Origin: a virus
Reading direction: 5' to 3' (one strand)
Length of the DNA stretch: 64,000 nucleotides
Virus record (IMG/VR): IMGVR_UViG_3300049491_000716
Coordinates: 1-64,000 of that record
Shown: positions 13,571 to 21,297 of the stretch, piece by piece
Layout of the letters: each line of letters begins with the position of its first letter
Position numbering within the stretch: the stretch's first letter is position 1
Notes under the pieces: generated by a model
What the model saw: the letters and a program-made list of their open reading frames with translations, nothing else
Told to the model about the DNA's origin: nothing
Databases searched by the model: none
Translations under genes and position numbers: made by a program

Positions 13571-14186
13571 ATGCAAGTCAAGCAACTGCTTCTCACCGGC
13601 GCCATTCAGGGGCCCTACTTCCGGCCGTGGTCGCCGCTGAATTGGCTGCGCCGCGCGTGGCTGAAGATGCGGATTTCGGACATCAACGATGAGTTGTCGC
13701 TGCATCACAGAACAGGTGCGCTCAGCAGTGCTCAGGCCGTGAACTGGATGCAGCAGAGGGATTGGCTCGAGCGTCGGCTGGAGGATCTGCGGTGACGCAA
13801 ACTGCGCTGCCGACGCATGTCGGCTCGAACGGTGCCGGAGCGATGGAGCGCGGCGCGTATATCAGCCCGTGCGGGCGCTACCTGGGGCTGCCTGAAACTT
13901 TGAGCCTTGCGTACCCGCAGGGCGGATGGGAGCAACGAAGATGATGATGGAACAGACTTGCACCGCCTCCAAGCTTGTGATGCGGCTCCGGGAGTTGATT
14001 GAAAAGCATGGCGATCTGCCCGTGTACGCTCGCGACCCCGATACACACTGGCGCCTTCCGGTCGGTTTGCGGTTTCGAGACGCGCAGCCAGAGGAAGAAA
14101 GGCCGGCCCGCTTTGAAATTGAAAGCGAGTATCACTTCCGGCCGCGTGGCGATCTTGTACCAGCCGAAGACCTTGAGTCCAATTGA
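13571..14186 (+). CDS. Hypothetical genes 13571-13795 and 13941-14186, with a DUF1643-like N-terminal fragment between
   Basis: ORFs; MERGAYISPCGRY fragment at about 13842-13880. Confidence 0.55.
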
Positions 14187-14219
14187 ATCGGGGCGCTCGC
14201 ACTCGGTGCCTTGTTTGAG

Positions 14220-14302
14220 GCCTAACGGTTGAGCTAACCGGCGATTTGCGGAGGCGGGGTTTGGGCTAGGCTTTTATAGCCAAAACCCCGCCCATGTAGG
14301 CA
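14220..14302 (-). other. attC half site (L'/R' present, R''/L'' arm deleted)
   Basis: Minus strand GGTTAGC-TCAACC-GTTAGGC with internal hairpin GGCGGGGTTT..AAACCCCGCC. Confidence 0.7.
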
Positions 14303-14313
14303 ACTGGAGGACG

Positions 14314-14646
14314 ATGATGACAGACGGAAAGCTACTTGAAGCCGCCGCAAAGGCTGCGGGGTTTGCCTACCGGTGGGAGCCGGGACTGCCATTTCCTCAG
14401 ATTGAAGAGCTGGAAGATGGTCGGCTTGAATGGAACTTCTGGCATCCGCTAACGGACGACGGCGATGCGTTGCGGCTGGCGACACAACTGCGCATTGACA
14501 TTTGTTTCGAGAAAACGCATTCGGTCAGTGCCTATACAGAGGATGATGAGTGGTTTCACGAACACTGCGACCAAGGGAAGCCCGAGCAGATTTTGGCCAA
14601 GACGCGTAGGGCGATTGTTTGCGCAGCCGCTTCTATGTCGGCATGA
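14314..14646 (+). CDS. Conserved phage hypothetical protein between attC sites
   Basis: GGAGG RBS; LLEAAAKAAG, WHPLTDDGDALRLA, TRRAIVCAAA. Confidence 0.85.
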   Translation: MMTDGKLLEAAAKAAGFAYRWEPGLPFPQIEELEDGRLEWNFWHPLTDDGDALRLATQLRIDICFEKTHSVSAYTEDDEWFHEHCDQGKPEQILAKTRRAIVCAAASMSA

Positions 14647-14659
14647 GGGTATTGGTGCT

Positions 14660-14759
14660 GCCTAACGTCGAAGCTCAGGCGCCCGACACGGCGCCTGGGT
14701 TGACGAAGTAGGCAAGGTGCGGCCCGCCGTGGCGGGTCGCTTGGAGCGACCAGTTAGAG
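14660..14759 (-). other. Complete attC site (100 bp)
   Basis: CTCTAAC-TGGTC-GCT(C)CAAG ... CCTGAGC-TTCGAC-GTTAGGC with paired interior. Confidence 0.9.
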
Positions 14760-15445
14760 CGCTGATGGATCAGGAGCAACCGATGCAGGACGACCGACAG
14801 GGCGAGCAGGCACACCGACTTGCGAGGCGATGCGGCGTGCCTGGTGCACTGACAGCCCGAATTTGCGCGCAGCTTCGGCCGCAGTGCCGTGGCCAGCGGC
14901 GAGCCACTTGGCTACGCGCTCGGCCGCCGCGGATGGGCGCCCGCTCATTCGGCGCGCTCGAAGTCGTGACGAATCACGGCGCGGCCGTTGTCGACCCAGC
15001 AGTACAAGCCGCCGATCGCTTCGGCGTCGGCCTCACACTGTTCGCGGTGCCCGGACGAGACGAACTCGCCAGCCTGCGTGAACACGGCGGCGTCGGCCGG
15101 GAGTGCGTCTTTAGGAAGTTGCAGGCTCAGCATGGCGGCTCCGAATCAGCGAGCGTTGGCGGCGTCGAACTTGGCTTGCTTCCAGGGCGATCTGGCGCGG
15201 GCAGCGGCTTCGCGGGCTGGACGGTCGGCTTGGATGATTGTGTCGAGCTCGCGGCCGATCTGACCGTGAGTGAACTTGACATAGGCGGCGTTTGCAGCAT
15301 CGACAGCAGCCTTGAGCGGCTTCAGTTGTTCGTAGCGAGCCTTCGAGTTCAGGCCGGCAGCGGCGAGGCGGTCACGCTCGGCGTCATGGGCAGCAGCGGC
15401 GGTGTCGAGGACTTGCTTCAGCGCGGCGATCTTGGTGGTGTTCAT
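14754..15445 (-). CDS. Three small genes (15146-15445, 14945-15133, HTH-like 14754-14948)
   Basis: Coupled; last stop TAA lies in the attC R'' box. Confidence 0.7.
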
Positions 15446-15542
15446 GGTGCTGGTCCGGTTGCGTTGTTCGATGAATGAATAATAGAGCATCATGCACCAT
15501 TACGCAAGGGCTAGTTTTGCTAGGACAAACCCGGAGCGCAAC

Positions 15543-16161
15543 ATGAACACTTACTCAATCACCGAAATCATTGCTGCGGCCAAAGCGGCCAACAACGGCC
15601 GCCTTCTGGCTTTTGCAATGACCGAGCCCCAAAAGCGCGCCGCAGAAAAGGCTGTCGCACGCGGCCTGATGACCGCGTACCACATGAAATTCCCCGGCTT
15701 CGGTTTCGTTGCAGCCTACGCAGTGGCCTAAACCATGAACAACGCGCACTCAATTACAACGATCAAAGACTTGCGCGATGCGCCGTGGCTTGACCCGCGA
15801 TGCGCCGATGCTGGGGCCTGCCAATCGCTTCGGTATATGGAAGCGCCGCCAATGTTGACAAATGAACAAGTGCTGCGAATCCTAGATTCCGTGCGCGAGC
15901 AATTTGCAAAAGACGGGCCGCCGAATGAAAGCGGAGCGCTGCTGTTTGCGCGTGCAATCGAACGAGCGCACGGCATCAAAAATGAACGTCGCTAAGACGC
16001 CAGCCCAGCGCCAGGCCGAGCGCAAGGCCCGCGAGCTTGCATCAGGCCGCGTGCAATGGAAGCTCTGGGTTCACCCTGATGATGTGCCAGAGCTGGCGGA
16101 ATACGCCGACAAGATGGCGCGGCGCAGGGAACGTGCCGCGAAGGCAAGTCCGGTTGAATGA
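15543..16161 (+). CDS. Three small genes (15543-15731, 15735-15995, 15982-16161)
   Basis: GGAG RBS; FARAIERAHGI and KTPAQRQAERKAR phage-type motifs. Confidence 0.65.
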
Positions 16162-16171
16162 AATGTTGTGC
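16141..16171 (-). other. attC half site (R''/L'' present)
   Basis: Minus strand GCACAAC-ATTTC-ATT(C)AACC-GGAC. Confidence 0.7.
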
Positions 16172-16260
16172 ATCACACGCGCTGACGCGGCACAATAGAC
16201 GAAGCCCGAATCATGGCAAGTGCAACGGGCTTCTGATCAACAACATCGGGAGTCGAAGAA

Positions 16261-18531
16261 GTGACTAAAAGCATTGTAGGCGGGTACGAGTCATTCATTC
16301 AAGACAAAGCGCTGGCGCAGATTGCGACGGGCTTTGATCCGCAACGACTCGGCCCCCACCTGTTCGATTTCCAGGCGGCCATCGTCGAGTGGGCTTGCAA
16401 GCGAGGCCGCGCTGCGATCTTCGCTGACACCGGCCTGGGCAAGACGGCGATGCAAGCCGAATGGGCCAGACAAGTAGCGGCCCATACTGGTGGCCGCGTG
16501 CTGATCCTGGCCCCTTTGTGCGTGGCACAGCAGACTGTCGAAGAAGAGGCGCGATTCGGCACTGCGATCAAGTATTGCCGCAAAGAGGCACAGACAGAAG
16601 GCGAGATCATCATCACGAATTACGAGATGGCGGACCACTTTGACGTAGCCGACTATGCCGGCGTGGTGCTGGATGAGTCTTCGATCCTGAAGAGCCACGA
16701 CAGCAAGACGCGGGCGCGCATCATAAGCATGTTCGACAAGACGCCGTACCGGTTGAGTTGCACCGCGACCCCAAGCCCGAACGATCACATGGAGCTTGGC
16801 AACCAGGCCGAGTTCCTGGGCGTGATGACGGCCGTTGAAACGCTGGCGATGTTCTTTGTTCACGACGGCGGAGACACCGCAAGCTGGCGCCTGAAAGGCC
16901 ACGGCAAGCAGCGCTTTTGGGAGTGGATGAGGACATGGGCTGTGTGCGTGCGCAACCCGTCGGACCTTGGCTTTGATGGATCGCGCTACATCCTGCCGGG
17001 CCTGCAAATGCACGAGCACACAATCGATGTGCAAGAGCCGCTGCCGGGGCAGTTGTTTGCTGGCATTGCGCAGACGCTGACCGAGCGCCGCGACGCAAAG
17101 CGGCAGTCGTTGGGCGAACGTGTTTGCATTGCCGCCGATCTGGTCAACAGCCACACGCGGCCAGCCATTGTGTGGTGCCACCTGAACGACGAAAGCAAGG
17201 CGTTGGCGCAGGCCATCCCCGATGCCATCGAAGTCACCGGTTCCATGACGGCCGACGAGAAAGAGGCCGCAATCATGGCCTTCACGCATGGCGAGAAGCG
17301 AGTGATCGTCACAAAGCCAAGTATCGCTGGATTCGGCATGAATTGGCAGCACTGCGCCGATATGGTTTTTGCTGGTCTTGATGACTCGTTCGAGAGCTTT
17401 TACCAGGCGGTGCGGCGCTGCTATCGCTTCGGCCAGAAAGACGTGGTGAACGTGCATCTGGTGTCGTCAAGTGCCGAGGGCGCAGTGAAGGAAAACCTGC
17501 AGCGCAAGCAAGCCCAGGCTACTGACATGGCCGAGAGCATGGTGGCGTACATGCGAGAACTCACGAAACAAACGATCAAGGGTGCGACGATGGAAAAGAG
17601 CGACTACGTGCGAGAAGTAGCCGAGGGCAAGGGCTGGACGATTCACCTTGGCGATTGCGTCGAAGTGGCAAGCGAACTGCCTGACAACAGCATCGACTTC
17701 TCAGTGTTCAGCCCGCCGTTTGCCAGCCTATACACCTACAGCAACAGCGATCGCGACATGGGTAACTGCAAGAGCTACAGCGAGTTTTACGATCACTTCC
17801 GGTTCCTCGTTGCGCAACTGTACCGCGTCACCAAGCCTGGCCGGCTGCTGAGCTTCCATTGCATGAATCTGCAAACCAGCAAGTTCCGCGACGGCGTGAT
17901 CGGCCTGCACGACTTCCGTGGCGAACTCACGCGCATGTTTGTCGCGGCCGGCTGGGTCTTCCATTCCGAGGTTTGCATCTGGAAAGACCCCGTGACCGCG
18001 ATGCAGCGCACCAAGGCCCTGGGCCTACTGCACAAGACCATCCGCAAGGATTCGAGCATGAGCCGGCAGGGCATCCCTGATTATCTGGTGACGATGCGCA
18101 AGCCTGGCGAGAATGCCGAGCGCATCAGCCACACTCACGAGAATTTCCCTGTCGAAAAGTGGCAGCGTTACGCCAGCCCGGTCTGGATGGACGTGAACCC
18201 GACTCGCACGCTTCAATTTCGCAACGCCCGCGAGACTGACGATGAGCGCCACATCTGCCCGCTCCAGCTTGACGTGATCGAGCGAGCTATGGAGTTGTGG
18301 AGCAACCCGGGCGACTTGGTTTTTAGCCCGTTTACGGGCATCGGCAGCGAGGGCTATGTGAGCATCGAAATGGGCCGGCGCTTTGTTGGCGCGGAACTCA
18401 AGCGGAGCTACTTCGACTTGGCAAAACGCAATCTGACTGATGCCCGCAAGACTCAGGTCGAAGGGCTGTTCGCTGACGATTACGAGGATGCATTTGCAGA
18501 AGATGGCGAGCCACAGGCGGCGGAACTGTGA
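16261..18531 (+). CDS. SF2/SNF2-like helicase fused to beta-class N4-C/N6-A DNA methyltransferase
   Basis: DTGLGKT, LDESS, TATP, QAVRRCYRFGQ; SPPF, HICPLQ, FTGIGSEG. Confidence 0.92.
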   Translation: MTKSIVGGYESFIQDKALAQIATGFDPQRLGPHLFDFQAAIVEWACKRGRAAIFADTGLGKTAMQAEWARQVAAHTGGRVLILAPLCVAQQTVEEEARFGTAIKYCRKEAQTEGEIIITNYEMADHFDVADYAGVVLDESSILKSHDSKTRARIISMFDKTPYRLSCTATPSPNDHMELGNQAEFLGVMTAVETLAMFFVHDGGDTASWRLKGHGKQRFWEWMRTWAVCVRNPSDLGFDGSRYILPGLQMHEHTIDVQEPLPGQLFAGIAQTLTERRDAKRQSLGERVCIAADLVNSHTRPAIVWCHLNDESKALAQAIPDAIEVTGSMTADEKEAAIMAFTHGEKRVIVTKPSIAGFGMNWQHCADMVFAGLDDSFESFYQAVRRCYRFGQKDVVNVHLVSSSAEGAVKENLQRKQAQATDMAESMVAYMRELTKQTIKGATMEKSDYVREVAEGKGWTIHLGDCVEVASELPDNSIDFSVFSPPFASLYTYSNSDRDMGNCKSYSEFYDHFRFLVAQLYRVTKPGRLLSFHCMNLQTSKFRDGVIGLHDFRGELTRMFVAAGWVFHSEVCIWKDPVTAMQRTKALGLLHKTIRKDSSMSRQGIPDYLVTMRKPGENAERISHTHENFPVEKWQRYASPVWMDVNPTRTLQFRNARETDDERHICPLQLDVIERAMELWSNPGDLVFSPFTGIGSEGYVSIEMGRRFVGAELKRSYFDLAKRNLTDARKTQVEGLFADDYEDAFAEDGEPQAAEL

Positions 18532-18532
18532 T

Positions 18533-18590
18533 GCACAACGTTTGAATTCACCTGCCGCCGGAGGCGGTCAGGTGGAATGAAGGGTTATGC
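18533..18590 (-). other. Complete short attC site (58 bp)
   Basis: GCATAAC-CCTTC-ATT(C)CACC-TG(A)CCGCC-TCC-GGCGGCA-GGTGAAT-TCAAAC-GTTGTGC; extrahelical G and T on the bottom strand. Confidence 0.95.
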
Positions 18591-18620
18591 GTCTGATTCA
18601 ACAACGAAGGAATTTGAAGC

Positions 18621-18875
18621 ATGAGACAAAGCCTGTTGGTAGCCGCGCTTGAATATGAGGAAGGCGGACAAACTCTGTGGTTTCATGCGCCTGATGGAAC
18701 GACGCTGCTGCGCCTAAAAGTCGATGGAGCTATCACGACACAAACATGCGAGACAAGCCCTGTCGCGCATGCCGATGGATGGGTGAAGGGGAACTTGGTT
18801 TTTTGCGTTCCGGAGAACAAGACGCATAACGTCGGCGATGAGCGGACCGCGAAGGCGCCGCCTACCGACGAGTGA
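18621..18875 (+). CDS. Cassette-borne hypothetical protein
   Basis: AAGGA RBS; bounded by 11-bp inverted repeat 18584-18594/18820-18830. Confidence 0.75.
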   Translation: MRQSLLVAALEYEEGGQTLWFHAPDGTTLLRLKVDGAITTQTCETSPVAHADGWVKGNLVFCVPENKTHNVGDERTAKAPPTDE

Positions 18876-18925
18876 AGAAGCAATGCGGCCCGCCGGAGCG
18901 GGTCCGCTCGATCAACCTGTTCGGC
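18824..18925 (-). other. Complete attC site (102 bp)
   Basis: GCCGAAC-AGGTT-GAT(C)GAGC ... GCTCATC-GCCGAC-GTTATGC. Confidence 0.9.
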
Positions 18926-19332
18926 TAGAAGGTGCAAAGCGATGGGAGCTTGCACGTCTTCAATGACTCCGCAACGAGCCAATACGTGAAGGTGTCGGGC
19001 TCGGTCGTGGTTTCTGCTGCGGATGGAGGTGGCCCGGACATGGCAACCTGACTACGCCACCAAGATGGACCGCGATACCTTGCAGCACGCAGAGGACTTC
19101 GCGGACTGCAAGACGCCCAACGTGTTCTAGGCAACTCGTTAGATTGCAACCAGACCCAAGAGATGTGAGGATGTGGCGCGCGTATCGCGATGGCGAGCCA
19201 TGGATCGTTGACGGCCGGCCGATGCGCGGCGGTCTTGAGATGATGTGGCGTGCGATCCAAGCCGAGATCGCAAAGCCACTTGGTCGTCGACACTGGAACT
19301 GATAACTTTCAACCAACAGATAGGAGCACCCT

Positions 19333-20391
19333 ATGAGCAACGAACTCGAAGTCACCAAGCAAGCCATCGTCGAACAAGACACCAGTGCGGCGGGCCTGAT
19401 GTTCACGCCTGGCGCCATGCAGCAACTGGTCGCCGTTGCCGACTTCATGGCCAAGGGTCGCGCCACCGTGCCGAAGCATCTGCAGGGCAACCAAGGCGAT
19501 TGCTTGGCTGTCGTGATGCAGGCCACCACGTGGCGCATGAACCCGTTCGCCGTGGCTCAGAAGACGCACCTCGTCAACGGCGTTCTCGGATACGAGGCTC
19601 AACTCGTGAACGCTGTCGTCAACACCATGGCGCCGACCAAGGACCGCATCAACTACGAGTGGTTCGGCGAGTGGACCCGCGTGATGGGCAAGTTCGAGGA
19701 ACGCGAGTCAAAGAAGAAGGTCGACGAAGACACCGGCAAGCCACTGAAGTACCGCGTGCCGAATTGGAACATCAAGGACGAAGACGGTCTCGGCATCCGT
19801 GTGTGGGCCACCATGAAGGGCGAGGCCGAGCCGCGCGTTCTTGAGTTGCTGCTCGTGCAGTGCCGTGTCCGCAACTCGCCGCTGTGGGCCGACGATCCGC
19901 GCCAGCAGATTGCCTATCTTGCCGTCAAGCGCTGGACCCGCCTGCACTGCCCCGACGTGCTGCTCGGCGTATACACGCCGGATGAACTCGACGACGCGCC
20001 GGTTCCGAAGGACATGGGCGCCGCCGATGTGGTCGGAAAGCCTGTGGATCCGAAGAATCCTCCGGGCCTGAGCGATGCCGAGCTTGCGGCATGGCGCCGG
20101 GAAGCCACTAAGGGGCTGGCAGCCGCCGAGGCGCACTGGAAGGCCATGGGTCGCGAGTTGCGCATGAAGGCCACCATGGACCAGCAGGTTGAGATGCGCA
20201 GGCTTGCCGAGGAAGCCGACAAGAAACGCACGGTGGACAACGGTGCCGCCGAGACCAAGACGGCGCAGCCCGCCACCAATGCCCCGGCTGCTACCGTGGC
20301 CGCCAAGGCCGACCCAGCAACCGGTGAAGTTGATCCCGACTTCGTGGCCGCCATGGATCGCGCCGAGCAGGCGGCTGGCGCGAAGGCCTGA
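19333..20391 (+). CDS. recT: RecT-family ssDNA annealing protein
   Basis: VPKHLQGNQGDCLAVVMQA..W.MNPFAVAQKTH..LGYEAQLV; LGVYTPDEL. Confidence 0.9.
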   Translation: MSNELEVTKQAIVEQDTSAAGLMFTPGAMQQLVAVADFMAKGRATVPKHLQGNQGDCLAVVMQATTWRMNPFAVAQKTHLVNGVLGYEAQLVNAVVNTMAPTKDRINYEWFGEWTRVMGKFEERESKKKVDEDTGKPLKYRVPNWNIKDEDGLGIRVWATMKGEAEPRVLELLLVQCRVRNSPLWADDPRQQIAYLAVKRWTRLHCPDVLLGVYTPDELDDAPVPKDMGAADVVGKPVDPKNPPGLSDAELAAWRREATKGLAAAEAHWKAMGRELRMKATMDQQVEMRRLAEEADKKRTVDNGAAETKTAQPATNAPAATVAAKADPATGEVDPDFVAAMDRAEQAAGAKA

Positions 20392-20394
20392 CCC

Positions 20395-21297
20395 TTGATC
20401 TACGTCCAGTGCGAGCAAGGCGATGCGGACTGGCACCGGGCCCGTTGCGGCCGACCGACCGCTTCGCTTTTCCACATCATGCGGGAGAGCGCCAGGAACA
20501 AGCGCGGCCCCAACGCCGGCGACTGGAGCGACACGCAGAAGAACCTCGCCTTCAAATACGCAATCGAGCGCAAGAGCGGTGAGCCGCTGGACGAAGGCTT
20601 CGAGACTTTCTTCATGCGCCGCGGCACGGCGCTCGAGCCCGAGGCGCGCCAAGAGTACGAGAAGGAATTCGGCGTTTTCGTGACGCGCGTTGGCTTCGTG
20701 ATGACCGACGACGGCAACTTCGGCGCCAGCTTGGACGGCACGATTGACAACGACGGCAGCCAAGAAATCAAGTGCTACCTGCAGCCCATGAAGTTGCGTG
20801 CCATTCACACGACCGGCGACATCAGCATGGTCATGGACCAGTGCCAGGGTGGCCTGTGGATCAGCGGCCGCAAGTGGATGGACTTTTGCCTGTACTGCCC
20901 GGCCCTGCGCAGCATCGGCAAGCAGTTGTGGGTGAAGCGCATCTACCGCGATGACAACTACATCGAAGCGCTCGAGGCCGACCTTTGGGCGTTCAAAAGC
21001 CTGATTGACGAATACGACAGGATCCTGAGTCTTCCCTACGACTCGTCTGCGTTTGAAGTGCAGCCACGGGTGGTGGTCGAGAAGGCCAGCAAGCGGACAG
21101 CGACACCCGCGCCGATCGCGCAGCCGCCTGTCGCGCCTGTCTCGCGCTTCGCCGCCCTTTCCGCCCGCATCGCCGCCGCGCCGAGCCGCGCATCCTGCGA
21201 CCTGATCCTTGACGGCGCCAGCGACCTGGATGCCATTGAGTACGCGGCGCTGGTTGGCAAGGCGAATGAGCGGTTTCCGGCAGAACAGGCGGCCTGA
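20395..21297 (+). CDS. YqaJ/lambda-exonuclease family
   Basis: WHRARCG.PTAS, GTALEPEAR, GASLDG, EIKC, QCQGGLW. Confidence 0.92.
   Translation: MIYVQCEQGDADWHRARCGRPTASLFHIMRESARNKRGPNAGDWSDTQKNLAFKYAIERKSGEPLDEGFETFFMRRGTALEPEARQEYEKEFGVFVTRVGFVMTDDGNFGASLDGTIDNDGSQEIKCYLQPMKLRAIHTTGDISMVMDQCQGGLWISGRKWMDFCLYCPALRSIGKQLWVKRIYRDDNYIEALEADLWAFKSLIDEYDRILSLPYDSSAFEVQPRVVVEKASKRTATPAPIAQPPVAPVSRFAALSARIAAAPSRASCDLILDGASDLDAIEYAALVGKANERFPAEQAA

Follow-up and report, generated by a model that had tools for sequence, protein, structure and literature searches.

We analysed a 64,000-nucleotide (nt) window, the first 64 kb of the 80,304-bp IMG/VR phage record IMGVR_UViG_3300049491_000716, which is estimated to be 68% complete, and focused on a gene for a helicase-methyltransferase fusion protein (16261-18531, plus strand) that is enclosed by a perfect 13-bp inverted repeat and stands among sites resembling attC, the recombination sites of integron cassettes. 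The gene begins with GTG, ends with TGA, and encodes 756 amino acids (aa) in which an SNF2/DEAD-type helicase is fused to a beta-class N6/N4 DNA methyltransferase (Pfam N6_N4_Mtase, 1.6e-16, with Helicase_C, SNF2-rel_dom and DEAD; PHROG 16, 62 and 67). Its motifs comprise a Walker A sequence (GLGKT) at residue 58, DESS at 138, and SPPF at 484 ahead of FxGxG at 691, and the nearest solved methyltransferases are 2zie and M.MboIIA. The family is widespread, with matches in 411 phage records, at least 597 viral-contig stretches, and 182 in bacterial genomes. Judging from the domains alone, the protein most likely protects phage DNA from host restriction by methylating it, as N6-methyladenine (m6A) or N4-methylcytosine (m4C), while the SNF2-type motor drives its movement along DNA.

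The gene belongs to an operon of phage early recombination and replication genes, all on the plus strand, in which it is followed by RecT (19333-20391) and an exonuclease (20395-21297) and preceded by small open reading frames (ORFs) without assigned function. A plus-strand hairpin, GAAGCCCG-N17-CGGGCTTC(T) at 16201-16233, lies about 30 nt ahead of the gene start. A CGGGCTTCT hairpin (CCCG...CGGGCTTCT) is found 25-35 nt 5' of the start codon in the closest clade of homologs (loci L005, L007, L010, L261 and L327, about 80% identity), none of which has attC flanks. Because the hairpin is kept upstream of close homologs that lack attC, it belongs to the gene module, for which it could be a regulatory or processing element. 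We found no sigma-70-like promoter on the plus strand in 15500-19500, which leaves without support the suggestion of an earlier sequence-only reading of this DNA that the module is self-promoted. Since the gene is co-oriented with the phage early genes, it is probably expressed by read-through of the early operon.

attC-type sites around the gene

On its bottom strand, an attC site carries an R' box (RYYYAAC) complementary to an R'' box (GTTRRRY), with AAC/GTT as the sole conserved stretch (Nivina et al., 2016; PMC5027507); the R boxes enclose an unpaired spacer, a variable terminal structure, and an L box whose double-prime arm carries an extrahelical base (PMC5027507). We searched for this layout with a structural scanner and with a covariance model, R1. 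The scanner, tested on known sites, recovered the aadA1 attC of plasmid R100 with its 7-6-7/8-5-7 layout as well as the cmlA5, arr-3 and aac(6')-Ib attC sites. R1 was built from the bottom strands of eight clinical class 1 attC sites taken from annotated plasmids (aadA1, the gcu cassette, cmlA5, aac(6')-Ib, VIM-4, dfrA27, dfrA1 and arr-3); it contains 16 base pairs and no sequence from the window. Site calls with R1 rest on cmsearch, and the E-values given here are approximate.

Three complete sites were found, and for all three the plus strand is the attC bottom strand. Site 2 (18533-18590, 58 nt), directly after the stop codon of the gene, reads GCACAAC / GTTTGA / ATTCACC / 18-nt terminal stem-loop / GGTG-G-AAT / GAAGG / GTTATGC, and scores 41.7 bits with R1 on the plus strand (E 5e-9) versus 6.8 bits on the minus strand. 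It folds as an imperfect hairpin with a DNA folding energy of -17.4 kcal/mol (z -4.6). Site 3 (18824-18925, 102 nt; GCATAAC / GTCGGC / GATGAGC ... GCTC-G-ATC / AACCT / GTTCGGC) scores 31.5 bits (E 3e-6) and has an L box paired 7/7 in the structural scan. Site 1 (14660-14759, 100 nt; GCCTAAC / GTCGAA / GCTCAGG ... CTTG-G-AGC / GACCA / GTTAGAG) scores 27.4 bits in an R1 match at about 14660-14760 (E 4e-5 over the window, 8e-6 with filters off), and the structural scan gives it the 7-6-7...8-5-7 architecture.

These scores stand apart from background. Genuine attC sites outside the training set of R1 score 29-38 bits; in 1.17 Mb of RecT-phage loci R1 returned nothing at E≤1, and in 0.77 Mb of bacterial loci its best match reached only 16.6 bits. 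When the structural scan was run strictly (L box 7/7), it called only 18533-18590 and 18824-18925 in the window, whereas 3.44 Mb of other phage loci, strands summed, gave 14 hits. A scan of 14000-21000 against Rfam 15 at E≤10 returned only chance matches to small nucleolar RNA (snoRNA) and internal ribosome entry site (IRES) families and no attC family.

The three sites also agree in their construction. Taken in the order 2, 3 and 1, the L boxes show 7/7, 7/7 and 6/7 pairing and, like that of aadA1, have one additional G in the 3' arm, between its fourth and fifth pair; spacer lengths of 6 and 5 nt recur throughout, and the central stems are unrelated. The site lengths, 58, 102 and 100 nt, compare with an overall length of roughly 57-141 nt for attC sites. 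The R boxes (GCACAAC/GTTATGC, GCATAAC/GTTCGGC and GCCTAAC/GTTAGAG) always keep AAC and GTT and depart from the purine/pyrimidine (R/Y) consensus at one position per box, a departure shared by the R'' (GTTATGC) of the genuine arr-3 attC. We are highly confident that these are genuine attC-type sites. Integrase-less attC clusters (CALINs; Cury et al., 2016; Neron et al., 2022) consist of at least two attC sites close together, spaced by less than about 4 kb, with no integrase nearby. The present three sites are separated by gaps of 3.77 kb and 0.23 kb, and the record holds no integrase.

A further element on the plus strand, at 16152-16171, is the 3' (double-prime) half of an attC site only, composed of GGTT-G-AAT (L'' with its extrahelical G), a GAAAT spacer, and GTTGTGC (R''). 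Its architecture is that of the 3' arm of site 2 and of the aadA1 and aac(6')-Ib attC sites. With the 5' half missing, R1 fits the element only in a forced manner, over 169 nt and with 11.6-11.7 bits, and we found no convincing 5' partner for it, the candidates at 16003 and 14222 being weak. The second of these candidates (14222-14241, plus strand; R' GCCTAAC, spacer GGTTGA, L' GCTAACC) is an uncertain, possible attC 5' half with no 3' partner nearby; it overlaps a weak R1 match (14220-14234, 11.7 bits), and only 5/7 positions pair between it and the L box of the 16152 half site. The near-perfect hairpin that follows it (14253-14292, 16-bp arms) is unrelated to it.

The inverted repeat and the pairing of R boxes

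The left copy of the inverted repeat, GTTGTGCATCACA (16165-16177, plus strand), is made up of the R'' box GTTGTGC of the half site and six further bases. The right copy, TGTGATGCACAAC (18527-18539, plus strand), is its exact reverse complement; it takes in the final 5 nt of the ORF with the stop codon, then a single spacer base, then GCACAAC, the R' box of site 2, such that the TGA (18529-18531) falls within the copy, one base outside the 7-bp R box at 18533-18539. The sequence-only reading had described a perfect 13-bp repeat around the gene, a stop codon inside its right copy, and an attC R box in each copy, and all three descriptions are borne out, the right box belonging to a site that scores 41.7 bits under a model trained only on clinical sites and the left box being the R'' of the half site. 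The 13-mer has no other exact copies in the 80,304-bp record, and the repeat continues to 26 nt at 81% complementarity. An exact search of viral contigs with the 22-nt junction AACTGTGATGCACAACGTTTGA gave no match.

The length of the repeat is uninformative by itself, and its meaning comes from register and position. Counting perfect inverted repeats of 13 nt or longer whose arms are no more than 3 kb apart, the window has 14 distinct ones, equal to 24 pairs of 13-mers, whereas first-order Markov random sequences average 8.4 pairs, and near-matches to this 13-mer occur at the chance rate (21 versus 20.6 expected). Within the same 7 kb, other perfect inverted repeats at 15657-15671/16040-16054 (15 nt) and 16052-16065/17850-17863 (14 nt) are unrelated to the attC boxes. 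We initially judged the repeat to be due to chance or linked to a terminator, a judgement dropped after the structural scan and the covariance model. Both copies begin or end precisely on the GTT/AAC of an attC R box, and ten further bases pair; ten extra matching bases at a fixed GTT/AAC register have, by our calculation, a chance probability of about 1e-6.

Integron integrases cross over at G|TT and cut the bottom-strand AAC between A and C, and an inserted cassette makes the R' box of its neighbor a hybrid, whose first six bases come from that cassette and are complementary to the cassette's own R''. In the phage, R'' of the half site and R' of the site at 18533 are complementary at 7/7 positions within a perfect run of 13 nt, which is the inverted repeat, and the R'' of the site at 18533 pairs 7/7 with the R' of the site at 18824 in a run of 11 nt (GTTATGCGTCT, 18584-18594 versus 18820-18830), compared to only 6/7 and 5/7 for R-box pairing within a site. 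The first bases of the helicase-methyltransferase unit are thus complementary to its own R'' at 13/13 positions, and those of the next unit at 11/11. The cross-site runs in other phage arrays found with R1 (L252 and L005) are 8-11 nt long. In real class 1 arrays, the arr-3 attC starts with GCCCAAC when beside cmlA5 (R'' GTTGGGC) and with GCCTAAC when beside aac(6')-Ib (R'' GTTAGGC). The rule invoked by the sequence-only reading, that the first bases of a cassette are complementary to its own R'', holds in each of these cases.

Because the R boxes pair better across sites than within them, the 13-bp repeat corresponds to the split R stem of a cassette-type unit. As predicted from this pattern, the unit spans at least 16152-18538 and has the helicase-methyltransferase gene as its cargo; the gene starts 89 nt past the R'' of its unit and ends at the first bases of the unit. 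The repeat is, with good probability, a cassette junction made by an integrase. The next unit is a mini-cassette with cargo at 18591-18829 (plus strand), in which an 84-aa ORF without a family match (18621-18875) starts and which it leaves to end within attC site 3.

Taken as a whole, we consider it likely that 14.6-18.9 kb is a CALIN of three full sites and one half site, with the repeat as the R''/R' stem of one cassette-type unit. The own attC of this unit would be reduced to its R'' (16165-16171) with L'' and spacer, and bases 18527-18538 would be the first bases of the unit, fused by a G|TT crossover (AA|C on the plus strand) into the R' box of the next attC. The pattern suggests the trace left when an integron integrase inserts a circular element, the putative cargo being the helicase-methyltransferase gene and its conserved upstream hairpin, both on the attC bottom strand. 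Because its own attC has no L' and R', the unit should be unable to fold or excise alone, and loss of this half may have locked it in place. As the record has no integrase, any recombination would need a host enzyme; a host integrase acting in trans could move the 3.9-kb composite between 14660-14759 and 18533-18590. The claim that the gene has the ends of an excisable cassette therefore stands as regards a genuine junction and fails as regards excision, the gene being inverted, the unit unable to leave alone, and the integrase absent, while the related claim that a half-lost left site locks the unit agrees with the presence of a 3' half only at 16152-16171.

The remainder of the composite holds small predicted genes. 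Three ORFs on the plus strand (15492-15731, 15735-15995 and 15982-16161, the last of which stops inside the half attC) match no Pfam or PHROG family and have no homologs across 240 loci that carry homologs of the helicase-methyltransferase gene. Three ORFs on the minus strand (14754-14948, 14945-15133 and 15146-15493), predicted coding only, have the canonical cassette orientation relative to attC site 1; none matches PHROG, and the one at 14754-14948 has a weak match to HTH_28 (Pfam E 5.5e-5, under the curated cut-off). A 253-aa plus-strand ORF at 14717-15478 is antisense to these minus-strand ORFs and looks spurious.

Homologous loci, source contigs and competing origins

What weighs against an integron origin of the unit begins with the homologs. 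We examined 240 homolog loci, 80 each from viral contigs, bacterial genomes and metagenomes, and found attC or the 13-mer at the gene ends in none of them (0/240). The typical homolog instead ends in ...EAA* overlapping the ATGA start of the next gene, and at the DNA level the closest relatives are similar only as far as the gene ends. The sequence-only reading had held that homologs without these flanks would refute it, and, taken literally, homologs without these flanks are what we found. We conclude that the gene family is not generally cassette-borne; the junction evidence for the present copy is not cancelled by this result.

Further points count on the same side. The predicted unit lacks a complete attC of its own at its 3' end, where only L''-spacer-R'' is present (16152-16171). 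A cassette usually carries one promoterless ORF, on the top strand and directed toward its attC, and this gene occupies the bottom strand and points away from the attC of its unit. The unit is also large for a cassette (2.4 kb), and its GC content (0.589) is the same as that of its flanks. No tyrosine recombinase (PF00589) was found in the 80,304-bp, 68% complete record, in a search whose control was positive in 14/14 genomes. The R1 E-values are rough, coming from a shortened calibration, and the account as a whole is a prediction from sequence. As to orientation, the resistance genes of class 1 reference loci run opposite to the strand of the R1 hit, whereas here gene and hit share a strand, the attC bottom strand, so that the gene has the reverse of the canonical cassette orientation. 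A complete integron, with an intI tyrosine recombinase, attI, and the promoter Pc beside the array, is likewise not present in the record.

The homolog loci do contain attC sites farther from the gene. R1 placed sites 1.3-2.8 kb from the gene in six of them (L003, L005, L033, L036, L053 and L267), all on the strand of the gene. These R1 matches include L053/G005:C1:7878-8997 (the same as L252), L253, L005 6863-7424, L003 6551-6612, L033 151-224 and L267 4548-4605, and sites lie on the strand of the gene in all seven loci with attC near a helicase-methyltransferase gene. One homolog record carries a four-site array with 300-400-bp spacing in which 2/4 bottom-strand ORFs match PHROG (phrog_13613 and phrog_30366), and the units in other phage arrays measure 250-370 nt. 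Synteny of neighbors was uninformative, with an exonuclease gene near the helicase gene in 14/240 homolog loci. A search for near relatives of the phage that could be compared for presence or absence of the cassette yielded a best RecT relative of 69% identity and helicase loci without flanking DNA similarity.

We also examined the one public sequencing run that holds the region, a freshwater sediment metagenome that is probably the source of the record and thus not independent of it, and which was available as contigs only. No contig in that run bridges a deletion of the unit, and its coverage gaps are uninformative. Loose ends at 18513 and 18545 delimit a stretch that matches over only 33 nt (the last 19 nt of the gene, the R' box, and the spacer) and diverges on both sides. 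When read through the shared stretch, the 30-nt consensus upstream of 18513 yields, in our translation, a different acidic tail (...QAAEL*), and the sequence beyond 18545 reads like a different attC L box, a reading as one molecule that holds only if both loose ends share one contig. Another contig matches as far as 14235, a position just past an R'-spacer motif, and differs beyond it. These divergences, from short single contigs, hint at cassette ends joined to different partners. Elsewhere in the run, a 100-nt piece (19024-19123) that ends three bases past a GCCCAAC (19114-19120) has four times the local depth and loose ends on both sides, and looks like a fragment common to other genomic contexts of the sample; it, too, would fit cassette ends with different partners.

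The alternative that survives best, which we nevertheless consider unlikely, accepts the attC-bounded unit as real and proposes that the gene, together with its hairpin, was swapped into a small existing cassette by phage mosaic recombination, with the same or a later event removing the 5' half of the unit's attC. A swap would suit a gene that is common in phages (the 411 records noted above), whose neighborhoods are highly varied and whose DNA similarity ends at the gene ends, and which in the closest clade forms a hairpin-plus-gene module without attC; it would also suit the absence of any attC-flanked homolog, the small size of the units in other phage arrays (only 250-370 nt), and a GC content that is not distinct. 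However, it requires at least two extra events, and it does not anticipate that the stop lies within one base of the cassette boundary with the last 5 nt of the ORF in the 13-bp stem, an arrangement in which the cargo fills the unit exactly. The source-run contig that apparently carries a diverged C-terminus at the same junction is a hint in the same direction.

It is less probable still, and in our view quite improbable, that 14.6-18.9 kb is a piece of a bacterial chromosomal integron array gained in one illegitimate recombination, with no integrase acting on phage DNA. The outer R boxes do lack nearby partners, GTTAGG being absent upstream, CTCTAAC absent between the sites, and GCCGAAC found only 3.3 kb downstream, and a part of one survey reports chromosomal integron fragments in phages (PMC9892861). 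However, the cargo is a typical phage gene with a phage-type upstream hairpin, the plausible ORFs all run with the phage operon and opposite to canonical cassettes, other phage arrays have the same inverted layout and contain PHROG-family genes, and none of the 80 bacterial homolog loci has attC.

Finally, 13-nt perfect inverted repeats are common (14 in the window), the hairpins all lie between genes on the transcribed strand with no integrase present, and attC sites are thought to be weak terminators (PMC9892861), but a coincidental repeat among hairpins that serve as terminators or RNA-stability stem-loops of the early operon is scarcely credible given that the clinical-only R1 yields 27-42 bits versus a maximum of 16.6 bits in 1.9 Mb of control DNA, that the spacers and the L box with its extrahelical G are the same as in real attC sites or typical of them, that a scan of 15500-19500 requiring a T run called none of the attC hairpins (site 1 being outside that scan), and that termination leaves the cross-site 13/13 and 11/11 in exact GTT/AAC register unexplained.

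Known attC arrays and a possible role of cassettes in phages

Phage attC arrays have been described before: 17 CALINs were found among 10,705 phage genomes, with five DNA methyltransferases, including N6_N4_Mtase, in their cargo (Qi et al., 2023, Front Microbiol, PMC9892861), and phage attC sites were recombined with IntI1 and an anti-restriction benefit was proposed (PMC9892861). The present locus resembles these CALINs in being an integrase-less attC array in a phage genome with a DNA methyltransferase as cargo. It differs in the 2.4-kb helicase-methyltransferase cargo, in the truncation of the unit's own attC, and in having all plausible ORFs on the attC bottom strand. R1 found no site in Tetrasphaera phage TJE1 (L334, NC_019930), whose attC was validated experimentally by Qi et al.; R1 is therefore specific and not sensitive to distant attC types, which makes its negatives weak evidence, and models from proteobacterial attC evidently miss attC sites of actinobacterial phages. 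In contrast to those of TJE1, the present sites score 27-42 bits with R1 and are close to class 1 attC.

This closeness extends to the whole class 1 layout, in which R' (RYYYAAC) is followed by 6 nt of spacer and a 7-nt L', then by a variable stem-loop, and on the 3' side by a 4+1+3 L'' with its extrahelical base, 5 nt of spacer and R'' (GTTRRRY). Site 2 reproduces exactly the 7-6-7/8-5-7 layout and 4+G+3 L box of the aadA1 attC, shares both of its spacers (GTTTGA and GAAGG) with the aac(6')-Ib attC, and shares its R'' (GTTATGC) with the arr-3 attC. The phage array also resembles class 1 arrays in that a hybrid R' box is set by the next cassette, and differs from them in having no intI, attI or Pc, in carrying its ORFs on the opposite strand, and in R pairing over 11-13 nt versus 7.

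For the loss of an internal attC, a parallel exists in the fused blaOXA-10/aadA1 cassettes (NZ_AP028130.1, locus L166), in which the 16 nt between the two ORFs contain no attC and such loss has produced a larger unit that moves only as a whole. Unlike in that fusion, half of the internal attC survives in the phage, whose fused unit would measure 3.9 kb and include about seven ORFs, distributed over both strands. As for the protein, DarB of phage P1 likewise joins an amino-methyltransferase to a superfamily 2 helicase in a phage protein directed against host restriction. DarB is roughly threefold larger and is carried in the virion, and it is not known to occur as a cassette.

Since phage attC arrays are already published, what is distinctive here is the large cargo, the half-lost attC, the inverted gene, and the closeness to clinical attC. 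Integron-type sites as canonical as those of clinical resistance cassettes bound a large DNA-modification gene, yet they come from an uncultivated freshwater-sediment phage. We tentatively suggest that some phages may keep part of their early operon as a cassette array, with genes on the attC bottom strand, among them anti-restriction helicase-methyltransferases, expressed by phage transcription and host integrases shuffling them between phages, and that the present gene may have been mobilised in this way and later locked when half of its attC was lost. Should host integrases act on arrays of this kind, anti-restriction genes could be acquired and shed by phages via the machinery that moves resistance and defence cassettes, and the consistently inverted orientation, if true, would point to a phage-specific use of integron machinery. 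The half-lost attC would then illustrate how a cassette becomes a fixed part of a phage genome.

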